Shown piece after piece: positions 13,969-51,662 of a DNA stretch of 64,000 bases; position 1 is the stretch's first letter, and each line of letters opens with the position of its first letter. The notes below the pieces were generated by a model that did no database searches, had not been told where the DNA came from, and saw only the letters and a list, made by a program, of their open reading frames with translations. The position numbers were made by a program, and so were the translations under genes. Source of the DNA: Escherichia coli (GTDB lineage: Bacteria; Pseudomonadota; Gammaproteobacteria; Enterobacterales; Enterobacteriaceae); NCBI RefSeq assembly GCF_051903065.1, contig NZ_CP178438.1; one strand, 5' to 3'.

Positions 13969-14459
13969 TCATGAGTCTTTTGAATGAAGTTCAGAAATTC
14001 ATTGAAGCCCATCCGGGGTGTACTTCCGGAGACATTGCGGATGCTTTTGCAGGTTACTCACGGCAGCGCGTTCTGCAGTCAGCAAGCAAGTTACGTCAGA
14101 GTGGGCGTGTGGCTCACCGTTGTGAAGGAGATACACGCAGACATTTCCCACGCCTGACTGAGAGAGCGCAGGAGCCGGAACCACAACCAGTTCGTGAAAC
14201 CAGACCTGTGCGCAATTTCTATGTCGGCACTAACGATCCCCGGGTGATTTTGTGCCTGACCCGCCAGGCGGAAGAACTGGAGTCCAGGGGCCTATACCGT
14301 CGTGCTGCAACGGTGTGGATGGCGGCATTCCGTGAAAGCCACTCCCAGCCAGAACGAAACAATTTTCTGGTGCGTCGTGAGCAGTGTTTACGGAAAAGCA
14401 GCAAGCGCGCTGTATCGGGTGATGAGTGGTATCTGTCAGGGAATTACGTGGGGGCTTAA
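13965..14459 (+). CDS. hypothetical protein (possible DNA-binding/replication accessory)
   Basis: 164 aa; ATGA overlap with the O-like gene; no family recognised. Confidence 0.4.
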   Translation: MIMSLLNEVQKFIEAHPGCTSGDIADAFAGYSRQRVLQSASKLRQSGRVAHRCEGDTRRHFPRLTERAQEPEPQPVRETRPVRNFYVGTNDPRVILCLTRQAEELESRGLYRRAATVWMAAFRESHSQPERNNFLVRREQCLRKSSKRAVSGDEWYLSGNYVGA

Positions 14460-15112
14460 TGAGTAATAAATATTGCCAGGAGCTGGTGGAACTGCGGAAC
14501 AAACCAGCCCATGAACTGAAGGAAGTGGGTGATCAGTGGCGCACGCCGGACAACATTTTCTGGGGAATTAACACCCTGTTTGGCCCGTTTGTTCTGGATC
14601 TGTTCACTGACGGTGATAACGCCAAATGTGCCGCGTATTACACGGCGGAAGACAACGCGCTGGCGCATGACTGGTCAGAACGCCTTGCGGAGCTTAAAGG
14701 TGCTGCCTTTGGTAATCCTCCATACAGCCGCGCCAGTCAGCATGAGGGGCAATACATCACCGGCATGCGTTACATCATGAAACATGCCAGTGCCATGCGT
14801 GATAAGGGCGGGCGCTATGTTTTCCTGATCAAAGCTGCCACCAGCGAAGTGTGGTGGCCGGAAGATGCAGATCATATTGCTTTTATTCGCGGGCGTATTG
14901 GTTTTGAACTGCCTGTCTGGTTTATCCCGAAAGACGAGAAGCAGGTACCGACAGGAGCTTTTTTCGCTGGTGCTATTGCTGTTTTTGACAAGACCTGGAA
15001 GGGACCGGCAATCAGCTACATCGGGCGCGATGAACTTGAGGCATGTGGTGAGGCGTTTCTGGCGCAGGTTCGCCAGCAGGCGGAAAAACTGGTCAGGGAG
15101 ATGGCGGCATGA
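14459..15112 (+). CDS. phage Dam-type N6-adenine DNA methyltransferase
   Basis: Start at the internal ATG overlapping the upstream stop (TAATG); catalytic ..AFGNPPYSRA.. (NPPY) motif. Confidence 0.7.
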   Translation: MSNKYCQELVELRNKPAHELKEVGDQWRTPDNIFWGINTLFGPFVLDLFTDGDNAKCAAYYTAEDNALAHDWSERLAELKGAAFGNPPYSRASQHEGQYITGMRYIMKHASAMRDKGGRYVFLIKAATSEVWWPEDADHIAFIRGRIGFELPVWFIPKDEKQVPTGAFFAGAIAVFDKTWKGPAISYIGRDELEACGEAFLAQVRQQAEKLVREMAA

Positions 15113-15435
15113 CGACATTAACTCAATGCCAGCAGCAGGTGCTGGATATGCTGATTTCTTATCAGAAAGAGCGTGGCTTTCCGCCAACCAATCAGGAGGT
15201 GGCAACCATGCTGGGATACCGTTCAGTGAATGCAGCGGTGGAGCATCTTCGCGCACTGGAGAAAAAAGGCGTCATCACGATAAAGCGTGGCGTGGCCCGG
15301 GGGATAACGCTTCATACCGCGGTGAAGGACGACGACAGCGAGGCGGTCGGGATTATCCGCGCACTGCTTGCCGGTGAGGAAAACGCAAGGCTGCGTGCAA
15401 CCCACTGGTTACATGAGAGGGACCTGAAAGTATGA
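15109..15435 (+). CDS. LexA N-terminal DNA-binding-domain-like protein lacking the peptidase domain
   Basis: 108 aa; MTTLTQCQQQVLDMLISYQKERGFPPTNQEVATMLGYRSVNAAVEHLRALEKKGVITIKRGVARGITL aligns by eye with host LexA residues 1-69 in this same window. Confidence 0.7.
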   Translation: MTTLTQCQQQVLDMLISYQKERGFPPTNQEVATMLGYRSVNAAVEHLRALEKKGVITIKRGVARGITLHTAVKDDDSEAVGIIRALLAGEENARLRATHWLHERDLKV

Positions 15436-15821
15436 AGCTGATCCTGCCTTTTCCGCCCAGCGTGAACACGTACTGGCGACACCCCAACAAAGGGGCATTT
15501 TCTGGTAAGAGCCTGATAAGCGCGGCGGGGCGAAAATTTCAGAGCGCGGCGTGCGCAGCAATAGTTGAGCAGTTACGTCGTCTGCCAAAACCAACGTCGG
15601 CACCTGCTTCAGTGGAGATCGTGTTGTTTCCTCCGGATAACCGGATCCGCGATCTGGACAACTATAACAAGGCGCTGTTTGACGCCCTGACCCACGCGGG
15701 TGTGTGGGAAGACGACAGACAGGTGAAAAGAATGCTGGTGGAGTGGGGACCGGTTATCCCGGAAGGGAAGGTCGAGATCACTATCAGTAAGTACGAGAAA
15801 ACGGCGGGTGCAGCCGCCTGA
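15432..15821 (+). CDS. rusA: RusA Holliday-junction resolvase
   Basis: 129 aa; ..LPFPPSVNTYWRH..RDLDNYNKALFDALTHAGVWEDDRQV.. matches the recalled RusA family pattern. Confidence 0.8.
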   Translation: MKLILPFPPSVNTYWRHPNKGAFSGKSLISAAGRKFQSAACAAIVEQLRRLPKPTSAPASVEIVLFPPDNRIRDLDNYNKALFDALTHAGVWEDDRQVKRMLVEWGPVIPEGKVEITISKYEKTAGAAA

Positions 15822-15840
15822 GCAAAAGGAGAAACGAAGT

Positions 15841-16650
15841 ATGAATAATCTGATGGTCATTGATGGTATTGAAGTTCGTCGTGATGCTTATGGGCGTTAC
15901 AGCCTGAACGATCTGCATCGCGCAGCAGTAGCATCTGGTGCAAATGCCAGAACCAAGGAGCCGGGAAAGTTTCTTTCCAGCCAACAAACTGTTGAGCTTG
16001 TTCATGAATTGACCAACACCCAGAATTTGGGTGTTGACCCGGTGAGTGTGATTCATGGGGGAAATGAAAGGGGAACGTATGTCTGCAAGGAACTGGTGTA
16101 TGCCTATGCAATGTGGATCAGCCCGTCATTCCATCTGAAGGTGATCCGTACTTTCGATATGGTAACCAGCGCACCGGAAAAATTATCCGGACAGGCTGCT
16201 GACAAGATGCAGGCTGGCGTGATCCTGCTGGACTTTATGCGCCGGGAGTTAAACCTGTCTAACTCTTCAGTGCTTGGTGCCTGTCAGAAACTCCAGGAGG
16301 CTGTTGGCTTACCGAATCTGGCACCGCGCTATGCCATTGATGCTCCTGCTGACGCGCCTGATGGCTCAAGCCGCCCCACGCTATCATTGAGTGCACTGCT
16401 GAAGCAGTATGGTATCCGCCTGACAGCTAATCAGGCATATCACCAGATGGCGAAGCTGGGGATCGTTGAACAACGTGAACGATACAGCCGCACTGCGATT
16501 AACAACATCAAAAAATTCTGGTCGCTGACAGCGAAAGGCTGCATGTTCGGCAAGAACATCACCAGTCCCGCAAATCCGCGCGAGACGCAGCCGCATTTCT
16601 TCGAATCCCGATTCCCTGAGCTGTTAAAGCTGCTCGATACCGTTCATTGA
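15841..16650 (+). CDS. KilA-N domain protein (anti-repressor-like)
   Basis: 270 aa; MNNLMVIDGIEVRRDAYGRYSLNDLHRAA.. N-terminus typical of KilA-N; ATG preceded by AAAGGAG. Confidence 0.6.
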   Translation: MNNLMVIDGIEVRRDAYGRYSLNDLHRAAVASGANARTKEPGKFLSSQQTVELVHELTNTQNLGVDPVSVIHGGNERGTYVCKELVYAYAMWISPSFHLKVIRTFDMVTSAPEKLSGQAADKMQAGVILLDFMRRELNLSNSSVLGACQKLQEAVGLPNLAPRYAIDAPADAPDGSSRPTLSLSALLKQYGIRLTANQAYHQMAKLGIVEQRERYSRTAINNIKKFWSLTAKGCMFGKNITSPANPRETQPHFFESRFPELLKLLDTVH

Positions 16651-16651
16651 G

Positions 16652-17647
16652 GTGACCGTGAGAGCACTACTGACTCCTGAAATTGCCCCGCGTATGGGGA
16701 TCGTATTGTTCAGGCCAGGTTCAGAGCTGATGCCCCTGTTTATGCAGGGGCGTGTCCTGTTGGAGCCTGAGCCGGAACGTTATTCATCTTTTGCCAGTGG
16801 TGCCGTTCCGGCGGTATCACAACCGCTGGCGGATGATCCTGCCGTTCGGGGCGTGTTCCGCAATGAGGCAGTGATCCGTCGTGCTGGTGGCGTGGAATGT
16901 CTTGAAAGCTGGTTACTTCGTGAAAAGGGCTGTCAGTGGCCTCATTCCGACTGGCACAGCGAGAACATGACCACAATGCGGCACGCGCCGGGCGCAATCC
17001 GTCTGTGCTGGCACTGCGATAACCAGCTGCGCGATCAGTTCACGGAACGGCTGGAATCAATGGCAACGGATAACTGTGCCCGCTGGGTATTGTCTGTTGT
17101 GCGTCGGGATCTCGGTTTTGATGATAGTCACGTTGTGACAATGCCGGAACTGTGCTGGTGGCTGGTTCGTAATGACCTGGCGGATGCCTTACCGGAAAGT
17201 GCAGCCCGTAAGGCACTGAGATTACCGAAGCCTGTTGTGCCGTCTGTCACCCGGGAAAGTGACCTTGTGCCTTCGGTTCCTGCCACCAGCATCATCCAGG
17301 ATAAGGCGAAAAAGGTGCTGGCGCTGAAAGTGGATCCGGAGTCGCCGGAGTCTTTTATGTTACGCCCAAAACGTCGCCGCTGGGTTAATGAAAAGTACAC
17401 GCGCTGGGTTAAGACACAGCCGTGTGCATGTTGTGGAAAGCCCGCTGATGATCCCCACCACCTGATAGGCCACGGTCAGGGGGGAATGGGTACAAAAGCG
17501 CATGACCTCTTTGTGTTGCCTTTGTGCAGAAAGCATCACGACGAGCTGCATGCGGATACCGTGGCATTTGAAGAGAAGTATGGCTCCCAGTTGGAGCTGA
17601 TATTTCGTTTTATCGATCGTGCGCTGGCAATAGGCGTACTGGCGTAA
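16652..17647 (+). CDS. DUF968-type nin-region protein with C-terminal Cys/His nuclease-like motif
   Basis: C-terminus ..CACCGKPADDPHHLIGHGQGGMGTKAHDLFVLPLCRKHHDELH..; start may be the GTG at 16658. Confidence 0.55.
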   Translation: MTVRALLTPEIAPRMGIVLFRPGSELMPLFMQGRVLLEPEPERYSSFASGAVPAVSQPLADDPAVRGVFRNEAVIRRAGGVECLESWLLREKGCQWPHSDWHSENMTTMRHAPGAIRLCWHCDNQLRDQFTERLESMATDNCARWVLSVVRRDLGFDDSHVVTMPELCWWLVRNDLADALPESAARKALRLPKPVVPSVTRESDLVPSVPATSIIQDKAKKVLALKVDPESPESFMLRPKRRRWVNEKYTRWVKTQPCACCGKPADDPHHLIGHGQGGMGTKAHDLFVLPLCRKHHDELHADTVAFEEKYGSQLELIFRFIDRALAIGVLA

Positions 17648-17660
17648 GTGGAGAACGAGC

Positions 17661-18413
17661 ATGAACCTTGAAGCCTTACCAAAATATTACTCCCCAAAAT
17701 CTCCCAAATTGAGCGATGAGGCACCGGCGACAGGCTCGAGTGGTTTAACGATTACGGATGTGATGGCTGCGCAGGGGATGGTGCAGTCGAAAGCACCGCT
17801 TGGGTTTGCCTTATTTCTGGCAAAAGTTGGTGTTCAGGATCCTCAGTTTGCGATTGAAGGTCTGCTCAATTACGCGATGGCACTGGATAACCCGACATTG
17901 AACAAATTGAGTGAAGAAACCCGGTTACAGATCATCCCTTACCTTGTGAATTTTGCCTTTGCTGATTATTCCAGGTCTGCTGCAAGTAAGGCTCGCTGTG
18001 AGCATTGTGCTGGTACTGGATTTCATAATGTATTGCGCGAAGTGGTGAAACACTCCAGAAGCGGGGAATCTGTTATCAAGGAAGAGTGGGTGAAGGAACT
18101 ATGTCAGCATTGTTATGGTAAGGGAGAGGTCAGCACAGCGTGTAGAGGGTGTAAGGGGAAAGGTATTGTACTGGATGAAAAAAGAACCCGGCTTCATGGT
18201 GCGCCTGTTTATAAGGTTTGTGGGCGTTGCAATGGAAACCGGTTTAGCCGTTTACCAACCACACTGGCGCGGCATCATGTCCAGAAGCTGGTACCGGATC
18301 TGACGGATTATCAGTGGTACAAAGGATATGCAGATGTCATTGATAAACTGGTTACAAAGTGCTGGCAGGAAGAAGCATATGCAGAGACACAATTGAGAAA
18401 AGTGACAAGATAA
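17661..18413 (+). CDS. late-gene antiterminator Q-like protein
   Basis: 250 aa with multiple CxxC pairs; placed immediately upstream of a promoter-terminator pair and the lysis cassette. Confidence 0.55.
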   Translation: MNLEALPKYYSPKSPKLSDEAPATGSSGLTITDVMAAQGMVQSKAPLGFALFLAKVGVQDPQFAIEGLLNYAMALDNPTLNKLSEETRLQIIPYLVNFAFADYSRSAASKARCEHCAGTGFHNVLREVVKHSRSGESVIKEEWVKELCQHCYGKGEVSTACRGCKGKGIVLDEKRTRLHGAPVYKVCGRCNGNRFSRLPTTLARHHVQKLVPDLTDYQWYKGYADVIDKLVTKCWQEEAYAETQLRKVTR

Positions 18414-18444
18414 ATGATTTTCGCCGAAGATGGCGACATGATGC

Positions 18445-18473
18445 TTGCATTTTTCAAAAAATATGGATAAGAT
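18445..18473 (+). promoter_or_regulatory. candidate late promoter (pR'-like)
   Basis: TTGCAT (18445-18450), 17-bp spacer, TAAGAT (18468-18473), about 50 nt upstream of a strong terminator. Confidence 0.4.
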
Positions 18474-18518
18474 TTTCCCAACGATGGGCTTTGTATGTCT
18501 ACCGTTGATAAGATTTAA

Positions 18519-18546
18519 GAACCCGCCACTGAGCGGGTTTTTTGTA
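18519..18546 (+). terminator. tR'-like rho-independent terminator
   Basis: ACCCGC-cactga-GCGGGT followed by TTTTTTG. Confidence 0.75.
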
Positions 18547-18641
18547 CCTGTAAACTTGGTGCAGTACAGTAAACACGCTGGTGGTCGTGAATACTGACTT
18601 TTTATCTTGCTGGATTTTTAGACAAGAGTTATTGGTATGTC

Positions 18642-18869
18642 ATGTTAACCAGAAGGGAAAAAGACATGCTAAAACAGCAAGATATGACAGAAACCGCCGC
18701 CGCAGTCCTTCATTTCTTACCTGCTGACAAGTGGGTAACGCCACGCATGATGACGAGAACTACCGGAGTAAGCGAAGCCCGGTGCCAGTTAATACTGACT
18801 CAGTTAGTTCTGGCGGGTCTGGCGAAGGATAACGGCGGGTACGGGAATAAATTCAGACGCTGCCAGTAA
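18642..18869 (+). CDS. small hypothetical protein (possible winged-helix regulator)
   Basis: 75 aa; first gene after the late terminator; start could be the ATG at 18666. Confidence 0.35.
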   Translation: MLTRREKDMLKQQDMTETAAAVLHFLPADKWVTPRMMTRTTGVSEARCQLILTQLVLAGLAKDNGGYGNKFRRCQ

Positions 18870-19019
18870 TGGCGGTTTCCTGCTGTGAAAATGGGCGGCT
18901 GGTGGGTGTTGGTAGCACCTGCCAGCCATTCGCTCATGCTTACTGGTCACAAGCGAACCACGGCCCACTGCTTTAGCGCAAAAGCAGAGTGAGCCTACCA
19001 GAGTTACGCTTACTGATCC

Positions 19020-20072
19020 ATGAAAAATACTGTAAAAATAAACAGTGTTGATTTAATCAACGCTGATTGCCTGCATTTTATTCAGTCCCTGCCTGATGAT
19101 TCCATTGACCTGATTGTTACCGATCCGCCTTACTTCAAGGTGAAACCTAACGGTTGGGACAATCAGTGGAAAGGGGACGAAGATTACCTTAAGTGGCTGG
19201 ACCACTGTCTGGCCCAGTTCTGGCGGGTGTTGAAACCTGCCGGAAGCCTTTACCTGTTCTGTGGGCATCGCCTGGCATCTGATATTGAGATCATGATGCG
19301 TGAACGTTTCAACGTGCTTAACCATATCATCTGGGCGAAGCCGTCCGGACGTTGGAATGGGTGTAATAAAGAAAGTCTGCGCGCATATTTTCCTGCCACA
19401 GAGCGCGTTCTGTTTGCTGAACATTACCAGGGGCCATATCGCGGCAAAAGTGACGGCTATGCGGCAAAAGAAAGGGAACTCAAACAGCACATAATGGCAC
19501 CGCTGATATCGTATTTCAGGGATGCTCGTGCCGAACTGGGTATAACGGCAAAACAAATTGCCGAAGCCACAGGTAAGAAAAATATGGTTTCCCACTGGTT
19601 TGGTGCCAGTCAGTGGCAGTTGCCGAATGAGGCTGACTATCGGAAGTTACAGGCACTGTTTTCCCGTATAGCGGCAGAGAAGTTTCAGGAACAACAACTG
19701 GAACAACCACACCACCAGCTGGTGGCATCTTATGATTCACTGAATCGCAAATATTCTGAATTGCTGGATGAGTTTAAATCTCTCCGGCGCTATTTCTCCG
19801 TATCAGTCTCCGTGCCTTATACCGATGTCTGGACGCATAAGCCCGTTCAGTTCTACCCGGGTAAACATCCGTGCGAGAAACCGACGGATATGCTCCGGCA
19901 AATAATCAATGCCAGTAGTCGACCTGGTGATCTGGTTGCTGATTTCTTTATGGGATCCGGTTCCACAATAAAAGCAGCAATGGCGCTGGGGCGTCGGGCG
20001 TTAGGTGTTGAACTTGAGTCAGAGCGGTTTAATCAGACGGTGAAAGAGGTAAGTGAACTGGTGGGGAAATAA
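19020..20072 (+). CDS. DNA methyltransferase (beta-class N6-adenine or N4-cytosine; DPPY motif)
   Basis: 350 aa; ..DLIVTDPPYF.. (motif IV) near the N-terminus and ..FFMGSGST.. (motif I) near the C-terminus. Confidence 0.75.
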   Translation: MKNTVKINSVDLINADCLHFIQSLPDDSIDLIVTDPPYFKVKPNGWDNQWKGDEDYLKWLDHCLAQFWRVLKPAGSLYLFCGHRLASDIEIMMRERFNVLNHIIWAKPSGRWNGCNKESLRAYFPATERVLFAEHYQGPYRGKSDGYAAKERELKQHIMAPLISYFRDARAELGITAKQIAEATGKKNMVSHWFGASQWQLPNEADYRKLQALFSRIAAEKFQEQQLEQPHHQLVASYDSLNRKYSELLDEFKSLRRYFSVSVSVPYTDVWTHKPVQFYPGKHPCEKPTDMLRQIINASSRPGDLVADFFMGSGSTIKAAMALGRRALGVELESERFNQTVKEVSELVGK

Positions 20073-20148
20073 TTCTGGTGGCCACGTTGCGTGGCCTTTT
20101 TATTTCCAACACAGCACCCGCAAATATCGCGAGGTGAGAGATGACGAA

Positions 20149-20484
20149 ATGCCTCATAACCCAAATACCTGGCCGGACTGGCTGGAGTTGTTTCAGAGCT
20201 GGTGGCGTGGAGACACACCGCTGGGTGCAGTGATTATGTCGATCGTTATGGCTGGTTTGCGCATCGCCTATTTTGGCGGTGGTGGTGGCTGGAAGCGAAA
20301 AACGCTCGAGATTTTGCTCTGTGGCGCTCTGACGCTGACCTTTGCATCCGCTCTTGAATATGTCGGATGGCCTAAATCGCTTTCTGTTGCCATTGGTGGT
20401 GGCGTGGGGCTGATCGGTGTCGATGCTATTCGTGGGGCTGCAATGCGAGTAATCGGTAACAAATTTGGTAGCTCGAAGGAGTAA
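20149..20484 (+). CDS. holin
   Basis: 111 aa from the internal ATG with RBS; hydrophobic segments and charged C-terminus; immediately upstream of the endolysin. Confidence 0.65.
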   Translation: MPHNPNTWPDWLELFQSWWRGDTPLGAVIMSIVMAGLRIAYFGGGGGWKRKTLEILLCGALTLTFASALEYVGWPKSLSVAIGGGVGLIGVDAIRGAAMRVIGNKFGSSKE

Positions 20485-21523: not shown

Positions 21524-21874
21524 ATGCCCCCTCGAACTCCAAAAGCCTGCCGCGTTCGCGGCTGCCGTAATACCACGACAGACCCGTCAGGCTACTGCGA
21601 AAGCCACAAAAGCGAAGGCTGGAAGCAATACAAGTCAGGACAATCCCGTCATCAGCGCGGTTATGGTTCTAAGTGGGATGTTATCCGTGTGCGTGTGCTG
21701 CAACGTGACAAAGGCCTGTGTCAGTTATGTCTGCGTGCCGGTGTGGCGCGTGAAGCGAAAACCGTTGACCACATCATCCCTAAAGCACATGGCGGCACTG
21801 ATGCCGACAGTAATCTGCAGAGTCTGTGCTGGCCGTGTCATAAGGCGAAGACGGCCCGTGAACGGCTTAAGTGA
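21524..21874 (+). CDS. HNH endonuclease (terminase-associated)
   Basis: 116 aa; ..CQLCLRAG....VDHIIPKAHGGTDADSNLQSLCWPCHKAKT.. HNH motif; just upstream of terminase. Confidence 0.8.
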   Translation: MPPRTPKACRVRGCRNTTTDPSGYCESHKSEGWKQYKSGQSRHQRGYGSKWDVIRVRVLQRDKGLCQLCLRAGVAREAKTVDHIIPKAHGGTDADSNLQSLCWPCHKAKTARERLK

Positions 21875-41981: not shown

Positions 41982-43079
41982 TCAAGAGGCCTTATTTCTG
42001 CTCCTTTGGAGCTCTTCAAAACGATTATGTAAAGATTTCGGATACAGTTCGGTATATACCTGCCATAGCACGTTTAATGAACGATGCCCTGTAACCTGGG
42101 CGACTTCCTCAATACTAAAACCAGCCTCAAATAAGCGACTTGCCCCTTCTCTACGCAAATCATGGTATCGCAGATCTTTAATACCTAATTTGCTTCTTAC
42201 CCTCTGGAATCCCGCAGTAACAGAAGTGCTGTTATATGGAAAAATGAATTCTGATTTTTTGGGTTGTCGTTGGACGATATCCCAGGCTTCCCCAAGCAAG
42301 GCTACTTTCATATGGTTGCCTTCCTTTTTACGTGGATCTTTCCTGTCTCTTACGAGTATGGATTTTTGTTCCTGATCGAGATCCTCCCATCGTAATCGGC
42401 ATACTTCACCGATTCGCATACATGACCACACAGAAAATTTGAGGATATCAACGAACGGAATTTTTGAGCATTTATGTGTAGATCGTTGTTGAAGACCTTC
42501 AATGAGCATGTCCAGTTCATCAGATGCCGGTCTACGATTACGACGATTTGATTTACCAATTAAACCAAGTTTAAGTAGATATGGACGAGCGGCTTTTGCT
42601 GGGTTTGATGTGTAATTAATTCCATATACAGGTTTGGCAGCATCCAGAACACTGCCAAGATAACTAACATCGTGGCTAACTGTAGCTGGACCTGCACCAG
42701 CGTTGTTTCTTAGCCTGCAATGTTCAATTACGTCATTTTCTGTCAGTTCAGATAGTTTGAGCGCGGAGACGTCACTATCCATAAGCAGTTCCAGCACATA
42801 TCTTTTAGTACGGCCTGCTTTACCTCCGGCATTTGGGTCATTTAAATATTTGTGTAGTAAGTCACGGACTGTAAGTCCGTCAACTGCATTTGATGATGGA
42901 ATGCCATATAGATCTAATTCCATCACTTTCTGTGTGCCCCATGTTTTGGCATGAGCATGTTTAGGGAATGTTTTACTTTCCCTGTAAGTGATAACACCTT
43001 TTTCTTTGATAATCACATTACAGCGATAGCGTGGTGTGCCATCGGATTTTAGTCGTTTCTCTATGTTATAGTATGCCAT
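41982..43079 (-). CDS. tyrosine integrase (dusA-targeting type)
   Basis: 365 aa; C-terminal ..HDLRREGASRLFEAGFSIEEVAQVTGHRSLNVLWQVYTELY with R..H..R..Y-type catalytic residues; abuts the dusA 5' end. Confidence 0.9.
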   Translation of the reverse strand: MAYYNIEKRLKSDGTPRYRCNVIIKEKGVITYRESKTFPKHAHAKTWGTQKVMELDLYGIPSSNAVDGLTVRDLLHKYLNDPNAGGKAGRTKRYVLELLMDSDVSALKLSELTENDVIEHCRLRNNAGAGPATVSHDVSYLGSVLDAAKPVYGINYTSNPAKAARPYLLKLGLIGKSNRRNRRPASDELDMLIEGLQQRSTHKCSKIPFVDILKFSVWSCMRIGEVCRLRWEDLDQEQKSILVRDRKDPRKKEGNHMKVALLGEAWDIVQRQPKKSEFIFPYNSTSVTAGFQRVRSKLGIKDLRYHDLRREGASRLFEAGFSIEEVAQVTGHRSLNVLWQVYTELYPKSLHNRFEELQRSRNKAS

Positions 43080-43160
43080 TACACGACCTCGTTATTTCGG
43101 GTTCCCATAAAACGTGGGAACCTGTGCGGGAACCTAACGCGAGAAAAATAGCCTGAAATG

Positions 43161-43271
43161 TTCAAAAATGCACGATAATCATGAAACACAAAAAATTAAT
43201 CAAACCAGCGTGATGCCTGAAAAAACTGGTGTTTACTGGAATTCTCGGTTTAGCATTGCTCCTATGCTCGA
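43161..43271. repeat. attR-side dusA 5' sequence (imperfect direct repeat of 4751-4861)
   Basis: Alignment by eye; this copy is fused in frame to the dusA body. Confidence 0.7.
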
Positions 43272-44205
43272 CTGGACGGACAGACATTGCCGCTATTTCT
43301 TGCGTCTGCTTTCCCGCAATACGTTGCTGTATACCGAAATGGTGACTACAGGGGCGATTATTCACGGTAAAGGTGATTATCTGGCGTACAGTGAAGAAGA
43401 ACATCCGGTAGCGTTGCAACTGGGCGGTAGCGATCCGGCGGCGCTGGCGCAGTGTGCGAAGCTGGCAGAAGCGCGCGGATATGATGAGATCAACCTGAAT
43501 GTCGGCTGCCCGTCTGACCGGGTGCAGAACGGCATGTTTGGTGCGTGTCTGATGGGTAATGCGCAGCTGGTTGCCGACTGCGTGAAAGCGATGCGCGATG
43601 TGGTGTCGATTCCGGTGACGGTGAAAACGCGTATTGGCATCGATGATCAGGACAGCTATGAATTTCTCTGCGATTTCATCAACACCGTTTCCGGCAAAGG
43701 CGAGTGTGAGATGTTCATCATCCATGCACGTAAAGCCTGGCTTTCGGGGTTAAGCCCGAAAGAAAACCGTGAAATCCCGCCGCTCGATTATCCGCGTGTG
43801 TATCAACTGAAGCGTGACTTTCCGCATCTGACAATGTCCATTAACGGTGGCATCAAGTCGCTGGAAGAAGCTAAAGCGCATTTGCAACATATGGATGGCG
43901 TGATGGTCGGGCGCGAGGCGTATCAGAATCCGGGTATTCTGGCGGCGGTAGACCGGGAGATCTTTGGTTCCTCGGATACCGATGCCGATCCGGTTGCGGT
44001 AGTGCGCGCCATGTATCCGTACATTGAGCGTGAACTCAGCCAGGGGACGTATCTCGGCCATATTACCCGGCATATGCTGGGCTTGTTCCAGGGTATTCCT
44101 GGCGCGCGGCAGTGGCGGCGTTATTTAAGTGAAAATGCCCATAAAGCGGGTGCAGACATTAATGTGCTGGAACACGCGCTCAAACTGGTGGCGGATAAGC
44201 GTTAA
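43168..44205 (+). CDS. dusA: tRNA-dihydrouridine synthase A
   Basis: 345 aa; TIM-barrel Dus motifs (..[18 protein letters not shown].., ..NLNVGCPS..); conserved position next to pspG. Confidence 0.9.
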
Positions 44206-44338
44206 CTTTTCACCAAAAAGTAGTCAAATTCACCACGCCCTGCGCACCGTCGCGGGGCGTTTTGCTGTTAAATCAATAGATTATTTTTGGCATGATTCTT
44301 GTAATGCCAGCAAGAGATTTCATATTTGGGAGAGCATC

Positions 44339-44581
44339 ATGCTGGAACTACTTTTTGTGATTGGCTTTTTTGTCATGCTGATGGTCACCGGCGTTTCGTT
44401 GCTGGGCATTATCGCCGCGCTGGTTGTGGCGACGGCCATTATGTTCCTCGGCGGTATGCTGGCATTGATGATTAAGTTGCTGCCGTGGTTACTACTGGCG
44501 ATTGCGGTGGTGTGGGTTATTAAGGCGATTAAAGCACCAAAAGTGCCGAAATATCAGCGTTATGACCGCTGGCGTTACTAA
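44339..44581 (+). CDS. pspG: phage shock protein G
   Basis: 80-aa membrane protein MLELLFVIGFFVMLMVTGVS..; track ORF over-extended upstream. Confidence 0.8.
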   Translation: MLELLFVIGFFVMLMVTGVSLLGIIAALVVATAIMFLGGMLALMIKLLPWLLLAIAVVWVIKAIKAPKVPKYQRYDRWRY

Positions 44582-49842: not shown

Positions 49843-50027
49843 GAAATTAAACTGTCGTCGCTTTCACTCTTTCTTTATAGATGATTTTTTTGATGCCATC
49901 GTTCTACGTAAGAGATAATAAACGTTATTAGTTCTTTTATTGTTAAGCTTATCCCAATTATCTGGAATTCCTTATCCTGTTTTTTTGTGTGGAGTAATAA
50001 TTTCTGCACATCTAACCATTATTAAAT

Positions 50028-50570
50028 TTAATAATAAGTGCCGGGTTTGTTACGATAGAATTTTTCTATATCCTCAAGAATATGCTTTGCCTTATTGCCT
50101 GTGACTTTCTGAGATTCAATTATAGTATCGTTAAATTCTAAAGTTAAAGAGAACTCTTTTTTTCCGCTTTGTGTAAGTTTAACCTTATATTGATTACCAA
50201 TATCAAATAAAAAGGTCCTGTAATGAGAATAATCACCTTTAACCTCCTCGGCAAAACAGCAAAGCGTGCAAATATACATAAAATCTTTCTTACCCCTGAT
50301 TTTGTTAACTAAATCAATAAATGCGTGAAAAACTGTACTTGCAATAGAACTTGATGCTTCTTCTCCAGGTCTACAAAAATCTTTTGCAATTTTTAACTGT
50401 GTTTCTATATATAAAAAGAGATCTTTGGCATAAGAGAAATCTTTGGCATAAGAGATATCTTTGTTATTTAGTGTATCTAGCTCTACAGGTAAAGATGTCG
50501 TTTTGTTGCTATTCACATATGATATATTCATGTCATCATCTCCTTCGGGAGTAATAAAATTAGTCACCAT
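50028..50570 (-). CDS. AT-rich hypothetical protein (yjbS locus) with an 18-nt tandem duplication
   Basis: 180-aa ORF in a low-GC island between tyrB and aphA; tandem repeat at 50421-50456 encodes DISYAKDFSYAKD; start codon uncertain. Confidence 0.45.
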   Translation of the reverse strand: MVTNFITPEGDDDMNISYVNSNKTTSLPVELDTLNNKDISYAKDFSYAKDLFLYIETQLKIAKDFCRPGEEASSSIASTVFHAFIDLVNKIRGKKDFMYICTLCCFAEEVKGDYSHYRTFLFDIGNQYKVKLTQSGKKEFSLTLEFNDTIIESQKVTGNKAKHILEDIEKFYRNKPGTYY

Positions 50571-50669
50571 TGTAGGGTAGGGTTCTGGTCAATCAGAAAT
50601 CATCTTTATAAAAATGTTATTTTATAAACTTCGATTGTTTTTGTAATGCTGTATCATTAAGTTCATTAA

Positions 50670-51662
<993 letters not shown>

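Follow-up and report, generated by a model that had tools for sequence, protein, structure and literature searches.

In the 64,000-nucleotide (nt) stretch of Escherichia coli DNA analysed here (contig NZ_CP178438.1 of assembly GCF_051903065.1; hereafter, the window), a prophage of the SfV/mEp460 type carries two genes for DNA methyltransferases, here termed MTase1 and MTase2. An earlier note on this DNA had described them as two unrelated orphan enzymes, a Dam-type N6-adenine methyltransferase with an NPPY motif at 14459-15112 and a beta-class one, with DPPY followed by FxGxG, at 19020-20072. Both open reading frames (ORFs) are present at these coordinates on the + strand, MTase1 between the replication genes and the antiterminator gene Q, and MTase2 between Q (17661-18413) and the holin gene (20149-20484), in agreement with the positions given there. 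MTase2, furthermore, does not stand alone: it closes a conserved cassette in which a small ORF and a structured RNA precede the methylase gene and terminators bracket the whole. The two enzymes are not new, as they correspond to SfV Dam and to an enzyme of the M.EcoGII family; what is new is the regulatory anatomy at MTase2, chiefly a leader RNA supported by covariation and often accompanied by a small winged-helix ORF. The features of the cassette are the following.

18517 to 18548, + strand: intrinsic terminator tR', a AAGAACCCGC/GCGGGUUUUU stem followed by a U run (from the fold and the SfV annotation)
18666 to 18869, + strand: small ORF, 67 amino acids (aa) from a conserved Met, SfV orf47, phrog_331 (function unknown)
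18889 to 19019, + strand: structured leader RNA of about 130 nt, between the small ORF and the MTase2 start codon at 19020
18892-18896 with 18963-18967: leader helix P1 (UGGGC/GCCCA), the closing helix of the three-way junction formed with P2 and P3
18897-18927: leader helix P2, 14 base pairs
18929-18934 with 18952-18957: leader helix P3
18968-18974 with 18981-18987: leader hairpin P4
18991-18997: conserved GAGCCUA box, its distance to the start codon being about 23 nt
18988-18994 with 19008-19014: leader helix P5, the box region with the segment before the AUG
19020 to 20072, + strand: MTase2, beta-class adenine methyltransferase of the M.EcoGII family, 350 aa, SfV orf48 ortholog (PF01555)
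20080 to 20104, + strand: intrinsic terminator separating MTase2 from the holin gene, GGCCACG/CGUGGCC and then a U run (terminator scan)

MTase2 matches Pfam PF01555 (N6_N4_Mtase; E = 1.6e-42) over residues 29-341, and its DPPY motif (residues 35-38, nt 19122-19133) precedes FMGSG (residues 310-314, nt 19947-19961), which confirms the order typical of the beta class. The protein is identical to SfV orf48 at 346 of 350 positions and to M.EcoGII at 282 of 349 (81% over the full length, with 2 gaps and with the central recognition domain included), a value that is approximate since the sequences of M.EcoGII and of the reconstructed ancestors Anc291 and Anc284 were machine-read from the supplement of PMC11551740 and contain visible reading errors; the identity amounts to 89% with Anc291 and to 70% with Anc284/SUPREM. 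Among relatives of solved structure, only distant beta-class enzymes turned up by sequence. M.EcoGII and M.EcoGI, from prophages of E. coli O104:H4 C227-11, resemble MTase2 in length (349-350 aa), motif order and prophage location, whereas about 19% of the residues differ between MTase2 and M.EcoGII. M.EcoGII methylates adenine in any sequence context and also acts on RNA (PMC5778455), and the ancestors Anc291 and Anc284 retain non-site-specific activity (PMC11551740). Because of its identity to these three proteins, MTase2 falls inside an experimentally non-specific clade and is expected, by homology, to methylate adenine in any sequence context; for the same reason, that is, its closeness to an enzyme without sequence specificity, no target motif is assignable to it. 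[quoted passage not shown] Homologs of MTase2 are found in SfV, mEp460, cdtI, phiP27, many Shiga toxin (Stx) phages of the Stx2a, 2c and 2d types, N15, PY54, phiKO2, VHML and Aeromonas phages.

The leader RNA, which occupies the space between the small ORF and the methylase, adopts the same architecture in separate minimum-free-energy folds of the leaders from the window, Hafnia, N15, PY54 and phiKO2. The structure was taken from these concordant single-sequence folds and then tested by pair counts. In a structure-blind MAFFT alignment of 22 representatives (A6), 73.9% of the cells are paired against 47.7% in the best slid control, 19 pairs are changed on both sides and the covariation score is 0.233 against 0.125 in the best slid control; in a model-fitted alignment of 36 distinct sequences (A7), whose counts lean towards the structure, the corresponding values are 83.3% against 46.8%, 26 doubly changed pairs out of 32, and 0.413 against 0.129. 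In both alignments, none of 500 shuffles reaches the observed pairing and score. RNAalifold run on plain MAFFT alignments recovers the structure in part only, the arms of the hairpins being misaligned. The covariance model built on the leader (R1) finds a single match in the window (130.7 bits, E = 5e-42). P1 is otherwise invariant, with a C-G pair replaced by G-C in two loci (L115 and L118) and, in Aeromonas phages, U-A replaced by C-G together with an extra pair inserted on both strands. The G-U pairs of the leader are compatible with the + strand only. Compensatory changes, a fixed orientation and a fixed position, which are the generic marks of a structured cis-regulatory RNA, are all found here.

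The same leader can pair in a second way. The stretch containing the 3' strand of P1 (A-R-G-C-C-C-A-Y) alternatively pairs with the box region, forming a helix (Pb) that is 86% paired against at most 48% in slid controls, with 19 compensated cells, a result reached by none of 500 shuffles; the compensatory changes fall at two positions, where G-C becomes A-U and C-G becomes U-A. P5, which engages the box region with the segment before the AUG, forms in all 17 representatives folded, and the cognate duplexes between box and tail are more stable than the non-cognate ones in 28 of 36 cases. The leader may toggle between P1 plus P5 on one side and Pb on the other, as occurs in the expression platforms of riboswitches; that it is a genuine two-state switch is, in our judgement, doubtful. 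A GATC is also present at 19015-19018, one base before the MTase2 start codon, and the string GATC[C/T]ATG is kept in the leaders of the E. coli type, of Providencia and of the loci L113 and L128, and is absent from those of the N15 and PY54 types; through it, Dam methylation might be coupled to the cassette, or the site might simply belong to the ribosome-binding region.

The leader is conserved in every homolog locus having the late-operon setting, in which an intergenic leader or a com-like gene comes before the methylase; distant loci are included, as are two without the small ORF. When IMG/VR was scanned for the pattern without reference to the methylase, 120 stretches were retrieved, in 116 of which a methylase of this family lies 19-161 nt downstream on the same strand, with a box-to-ATG spacing of exactly 23 nt in 112 of the 116; the remaining 4 of 120 are not matches of the covariance model. 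Among the scanned loci, the linkage of the RNA to this methylase family is exclusive. The model also gives unseeded matches in Vibrio and Aeromonas phages (33-47 bits, E from 1e-8 to 1e-13), in which the 3' end of the RNA falls at the start codon of a gene for a zinc finger resembling Com of phage Mu, which overlaps the methylase gene. In the case of phiO18P, in which the methylase lies between the holin and endolysin genes, the covariance model finds no leader RNA. In E. coli the leader is present in 2635 of 5426 complete genomes, in up to 8 copies per genome, and no RefSeq feature lies under it. Rfam 15 yields only sub-threshold, terminator-driven matches in the window (E up to 1) and no match over the leader in six divergent loci, and ARAGORN predicts no tRNA or tmRNA at the leader. 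The published work on M.EcoGII (PMC5778455) treats the gene alone, with no mention of the winged-helix ORF or of a structured leader.

These data on position bear directly on the reading in which the conserved RNA does not regulate the methylase and instead serves in processing or stability, or is an independent small RNA travelling with the cassette. A terminator-like U run located immediately 5' of the RNA in Stx-type, N15 and PY54 loci would suit such a role, as would the trans-acting small RNA made from the neighbouring pR'-tR' region in Stx phages and the fact that no obvious Shine-Dalgarno sequence is occluded. The constant 23-nt spacing between box and ATG speaks against it, as do the coincidence of the 3' end of the model with the com start codon in com-bearing phages and the observation that the RNA never occurs without the methylase, so that we regard this reading as rather improbable. 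That the leader regulates expression at all is, instead, fairly probable.

The first element of the cassette, the small ORF, is predicted by AlphaFold (predicted local distance difference test score, pLDDT, 86) to fold as helix-helix-helix-strand-strand, that is, as a minimal stand-alone winged helix, and the model resembles Z-alpha domains with template modelling (TM) scores of 0.82-0.84, matching also the RNA-binding winged helix of SelB and IclR/MarR domains. Homologs precede the methylase in Hafnia, Providencia and Stx2a phages, in N15 (gp51), in phiKO2 (gp51, annotated as a winged helix) and in PY54 (ORF59). In 76 of 78 IMG/VR loci the small ORF lies 344-354 nt upstream of the methylase start, a spacing kept also in loci whose Q, holin and MTase1 are different. 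No winged-helix ORF was detected upstream of the RNA in Aeromonas, VHML and some other RNA-bearing groups.

The leader might be a gate operated by a protein, namely a binding site for the winged-helix protein, for the methylase itself (autoregulation) or for a host factor, by analogy with Com acting on the mom mRNA. Such a role would agree with the constant position of the winged-helix ORF, which persists in the N15, PY54 and phiKO2 groups, with the similarity of its predicted fold to nucleic-acid-binding winged helices including the RNA-binding domain of SelB, with the Com-like zinc-finger gene that Vibrio and Aeromonas relatives carry between the RNA and the methylase, and with the activity of M.EcoGII on RNA. 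The absence of the winged-helix ORF from several RNA-bearing groups and from 2 of the 78 close loci, and its location upstream of the late promoter in N15-type phages, argue in the other direction. A protein-operated gate can be considered possible, although less likely than not.

In the alternative in which the leader is a true riboswitch, the three-way junction would bind a small molecule and exchange P1 plus P5 for Pb; S-adenosylmethionine (SAM) or S-adenosylhomocysteine (SAH) would be logical ligands because a non-specific methylase would consume much SAM. The junction strands and the UGGGC, GCCCA and GAGCCUA elements are invariant or nearly so, P1 and Pb are mutually exclusive and each has compensatory support, the distance to the start codon is fixed, and the RNA occurs where neither a winged-helix ORF nor a com-like gene is detected, all of which would suit a ligand-binding RNA. 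However, the leader has no likeness to any Rfam riboswitch, the ligand is purely hypothetical, helix Pa (see below) lacks covariation, and its tie to one gene family only would be just as well explained by a site for protein binding or autoregulation; this alternative is therefore unlikely. More generally, we propose only tentatively that 18889-19019 represents an undescribed class of regulatory RNA, a switch operated by a ligand or a protein that would license translation of the toxic, non-specific methylase, or of its Com-like activator, only late in the lytic cycle, the candidate triggers being a metabolite, the winged-helix protein, the methylase itself and a host factor.

A known system with which the cassette can be compared is com-mom of phage Mu, where mom is a late, toxic, anti-restriction gene controlled by Com at an mRNA stem (PMC12707154). 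The analogy would lie in a late, host-toxic adenine modification that counters restriction and is restrained post-transcriptionally by an RNA structure just before the start codon. On the other hand, Mom is not a SAM methyltransferase of the MTase2 family, no com-like ORF lies between 18869 and 19020 in the window, and the five-helix leader of about 130 nt is much larger than the translation-inhibition stem of mom. In com-bearing phages the leader is located upstream of com, and is accordingly an additional element and not a replacement of com; since the model finds the RNA upstream of com too, the idea that the Com-like gene and the RNA leader are alternative devices was discarded. In the Vibrio and Aeromonas phage loci L096 (1060-1200), L099 (1062-1277) and L102, the leader RNA is separated from the methylase by the Com-like zinc-finger ORF, and in these three loci a short hairpin at the methylase start, after the Com-like ORF, resembles that of com-mom.

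Upstream and downstream of the cassette, the head of the late operon comprises the following features.

17661 to 18413, + strand: antiterminator gene Q (PF03589, E = 2.1e-53; phrog_127; RefSeq 'antitermination protein Q')
18445 to 18473, + strand: candidate late promoter pR', TTGCAT-17 nt-TAAGAT, read from the sequence and inferred only
20149 to 20484, + strand: lambda-family holin, the first lysis gene past the cassette (PF05106, E = 5.9e-27; RefSeq)

The terminator tR' folds as a 10-bp hairpin inside a structure of -25 kcal/mol (z-score -3.5) and is annotated as a terminator at the same site in SfV, while the one at 20080-20104 (-12.5 kcal/mol, z-score -3.0) is annotated as such in SfV, N15 and phiKO2. 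The position of the candidate pR' agrees with that of the annotated late promoters of N15 and phiKO2, which stand upstream of the same cassette, and the records of both phages annotate a late promoter and a terminator at the equivalent place. In SfV (GenBank U82619), dam (orf41) and orf48 occur in the same gene order, with the same annotated terminators after Q and after orf48. MTase2 is considered a Q-dependent late gene because it is located downstream of Q, the candidate pR' and tR'; its expression should be Q-dependent and late, a timing that we infer and that fits the reported silence of M.EcoGII in lysogens. In the related Stx phages, transcription from pR' is constitutive but stops at tR' in lysogens, and the pR'-tR' transcript is a trans-acting small RNA (PMC7547250). 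The candidate pR' and tR' of the window (18445-18548) would yield a terminated transcript of about 70 nt, which would correspond to the 6S RNA of lambda and to StxS, a small RNA of Stx phages.

In Stx phages the slot between tR' and the holin gene, held here by the MTase2 cassette, is occupied by stx; the cargo in the window is, instead, a DNA-modifying enzyme with its own downstream terminator and leader RNA. The two are combined in phage Stx2a_WGPS2 (L010, 3153-6183), where the cassette lies directly upstream of the tRNA genes ileZ-argN-argO and of stx2AB in one late transcription unit. More broadly, tRNA genes come right after the methylase in 29 of the 57 IMG/VR loci (L013-L092) having enough downstream sequence.

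MTase1 belongs to a different part of the prophage.

14459 to 15112, + strand: MTase1, phage Dam-type N6-adenine DNA methyltransferase, 217 aa, ortholog of SfV dam/orf41 (PF05869, TIGR01712)

The Dam-type assignment is confirmed by Pfam PF05869 ('Dam'; E = 9.7e-46), whose cut-off of 28.1 bits is exceeded with 156 bits in a match spanning positions 3-167 of the 169 in the profile, and by the NCBIfam equivalog TIGR01712 (phage_N6A_met; 256.5 bits against a cut-off of 97.05), with NPPY at residues 86-89 (nt 14714-14725). The protein is identical to SfV Dam (AAL89443) at 215 of 217 positions and shares 31% identity with the VT2-Sa and 25% with the T1 enzyme; no relatives of solved structure were found by sequence search. 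In an alignment with the VT2-Sa, T1 and PY54 enzymes, N86, P87, P88 and S90, W27 and T29, and D47 are invariant. The phage 'mini' Dam enzymes of VT2-Sa, T1 and HP1 belong to the same Pfam and TIGRFAM family, and MTase1 has in common with VT2-Sa and T1 Dam the motifs D-x-W-x-T-P, L-D and NPPYS despite an identity of only 25-31%; the host E. coli Dam, in contrast, is in another Pfam family that MTase1 does not match, with no homology at the family level. SfV orf41 is reportedly a functional Dam (GATC) methylase, in a phage that is said to encode several methylases (Allison et al. 2002, J Bacteriol 184:1974). At 99% identity to SfV Dam, MTase1 is expected to have GATC as its target. VT2-Sa Dam has been cited as GATC-specific (PMC6602927).

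The order of the early-right operon is replication protein, PerC-like protein, MTase1, a protein resembling a LexA DNA-binding domain, RusA, KilA-N, DUF968/HNH and Q. Both ends of MTase1 overlap its neighbours (TAATG at 14457-14461 and ATGA at 15109-15112), and a further ATGA overlap occurs near 15432, where the LexA-like and RusA genes meet; in this translationally coupled operon, MTase1 would be expected to behave as a delayed-early gene. The protein that begins at the ATGA overlapping the MTase1 stop (15109-15435, 108 aa) consists of a LexA-type DNA-binding domain alone and is missing from the version of the operon in Hafnia phage yong2.

A caution about the substrates of phage enzymes comes from the Stx-phage enzyme M.EcoPA8orf6770P, which was annotated as a GATC DNA methylase and was found to prefer 16S rRNA (PMC10810198). 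If MTase1 were likewise chiefly an RNA methyltransferase, or if MTase2 were sequence-specific in spite of its likeness to M.EcoGII, as might be envisaged from other families in which small changes of the target-recognition domain alter the specificity, the target assignments made above would have to be revised. Both eventualities, taken together, are very unlikely: the members of the MTase2 clade, extant enzyme and ancestors down to 70% identity, are all non-site-specific, and enzymes of the M.EcoPA8orf6770P/M.EcoGV type have an MT-A70 domain, a DPPW motif and an adjacent PNB-2 partner gene (PMC10810198), whereas MTase1 matches only PF05869 and TIGR01712, has NPPY and is 99% identical to SfV Dam. 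Membership of MTase1 in the MT-A70 rRNA methyltransferases of the PA8 phage type was ruled out on the same grounds, that is, no match to MT-A70 and NPPY instead of DPPW; in Pfam, MTase2 does not match MT-A70 either.

The two methyltransferases are unrelated, as previously proposed (mutual BLASTP E = 0.22; different Pfam families), and neither has a restriction gene beside it, their neighbours being the PerC-like, LexA-domain-like, RusA, KilA-N and DUF968/HNH proteins, Q, the small ORF and the holin. A cognate endonuclease, as a type II restriction-modification system would have, was not found next to either of them; PADLOC detects in the window only the two methyltransferases and weak HNH matches, with no restriction system, and no restriction enzyme is annotated by RefSeq anywhere in the 98.9%-identical prophage of strain D53-1. 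The weak PADLOC matches to restriction models concern an HNH endonuclease at 21524-21874 that adjoins the P27-family small terminase. An HNH protein next to the terminase is the usual packaging accessory of cos phages, and the one in the window is terminase-associated and not a restriction partner. The possibility that MTase1 and MTase2 form a linked pair was also dismissed, since a MTase1 homolog occurs within 7 kb upstream in only 15 of the 61 loci from IMG/VR in which the sequence before the MTase2 homolog extends for at least 6.5 kb.

As to function, the suggestion of anti-restriction self-protection agrees with the published view of enzymes of the M.EcoGII type, while that of epigenetic regulation in the lysogen finds no support in the case of MTase2. 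According to the latter, one or both enzymes would control genes of the host or of the prophage during lysogeny, producing a new methylated motif. Orphan methyltransferases can indeed regulate genes, the annotation of SfV gives dam its own -35/-10 signals, so that expression of MTase1 in the lysogen is conceivable, and the GATC abutting the MTase2 start codon is conserved in several leader types. Nevertheless, M.EcoGI and M.EcoGII leave no detectable methylation in the lysogens they come from and do harm when expressed, MTase2 lies behind tR', the expected target of MTase1 is already methylated by the host Dam, and GATC sites are neither depleted nor enriched in the prophage (161 observed, about 150 expected). 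We hold a regulatory role in the lysogen to be quite unlikely. A comparison of the methylomes of lysogen and cured strain, the check that had been advised, would miss both enzymes because MTase2 is expected to be silent in lysogens and to have no motif, and GATC methylation is masked by the host Dam; the refutation criterion proposed with it would accordingly yield a false negative.

In the light of these data, we consider it likely that the prophage carries two independent orphan adenine methyltransferases separated by stage, the second of which is placed behind a post-transcriptional RNA gate. MTase1 would be made from the early-right operon during phage DNA replication. MTase2 would appear only at a late stage, at which harm to the host chromosome is of no further consequence, and would coat the progeny DNA with N6-methyladenine before packaging, so that in the next host many restriction systems of types I, II and III would be blunted. 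The leader would gate the first gene of the cassette in cis and after transcription, most likely at translation initiation, and would suppress the leaky expression arising from the constitutively active pR'; the rationale is that pR' fires constitutively and leakage through tR' would otherwise yield a harmful enzyme.

Several points weigh against this proposal or against parts of it. Family membership, gene order, the terminators and the conservation, covariation and linkage of the RNA are shown by the sequences, whereas the target specificities, the timing of expression and the action of the RNA are predictions. The identity to M.EcoGII is approximate, as stated above, and GATC is expected as the target of MTase1 from the reported specificity of SfV Dam. 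The hexamers of the candidate pR' are weak, and its -35 fails a consensus promoter scan. With regard to the leader, the support for P5 is modest (mean z-score -1.5 against shuffled tails), P5 ends 8-12 nt before the start codon in most leaders, and no Shine-Dalgarno sequence is evident before the MTase2 start, so that sequestration of the ribosome-binding site is not demonstrated. A further helix, Pa (AUGGG with CUCAU), is 89% paired but its covariation does not go beyond that of shuffles, and it is not claimed. The winged-helix ORF, undetected in several RNA-bearing groups, is ruled out as an obligatory partner of the RNA. Finally, the check for an earlier record covered Rfam 15, RefSeq features and literature on candidate structured RNAs and on Stx-phage small RNAs, with no description of the leader found there; it may have been described elsewhere under another name.

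The prophage as a whole is chromosomal. From left to right, the window contains lexA-dinF-yjbJ-zur, a dusA fragment at about 4.7 kb, the prophage of about 38.5 kb, its integrase and an intact dusA; the 5' fragment of dusA marks the left end of the prophage (window 1-4822 side), the tyrosine integrase and the intact dusA lie on the right (about 42100-44400), and beyond them follow pspG-qorA-dnaB. The prophage has Mu-like tail and HK97-like head genes, and the RefSeq annotation of the D53-1 prophage was used for comparison. It differs from SfV in its dusA-specific integrase and in its early-left region, the match to SfV being limited to the part from about 13.9 kb onward. The segment 14300-20500 is 100% identical on the 204.8-kb plasmid pEND_Eco 18005 (NZ_CP126947.1) of the avian pathogenic E. 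coli (APEC) O78:H51 strain E18005, which also has a chromosomal copy of the prophage. The plasmid copy is located in the leading region, between psiA/hok and a truncated parB-ssb-antirestriction block in which a small plasmid orphan methyltransferase is also found. The window itself does not derive from this plasmid, since only 13466-31571 matches it (98.7%) and the flanks are chromosomal. At the left end of the prophage (about 5080-6100), the D53-1 annotation gives a Panacea-domain protein and a hypothetical protein, a pair that is possibly a toxin-antitoxin system or a defence moron. Two islands of low GC content (0.32-0.38), at 3001-5000 and 50001-51000, lie outside the region studied.

Orphan methylases borne by prophages are commonplace, and as enzymes the two described here add little; a comparison of lysogen methylomes would show neither activity, and their function is to be sought in virion DNA after induction. 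M.EcoGII, widely used as a reagent for chromatin footprinting and presumed to be a broad anti-restriction device, is apparently under a dedicated, conserved and uncatalogued RNA control. If the leader is a switch, this would explain how phages tolerate a gene that is harmful when leaky in spite of a constitutive pR', and would provide a compact off-switch for the expression of toxic nucleic-acid-modifying enzymes. It would also mean that a new class of RNA lies in very well-studied genomes, including the stx2-bearing transcription unit of some Shiga-toxin phages, as an unannotated RNA carried by about half of the complete E. coli genomes and by Stx, N15-like, PY54-like, VHML-like and Aeromonas phages.

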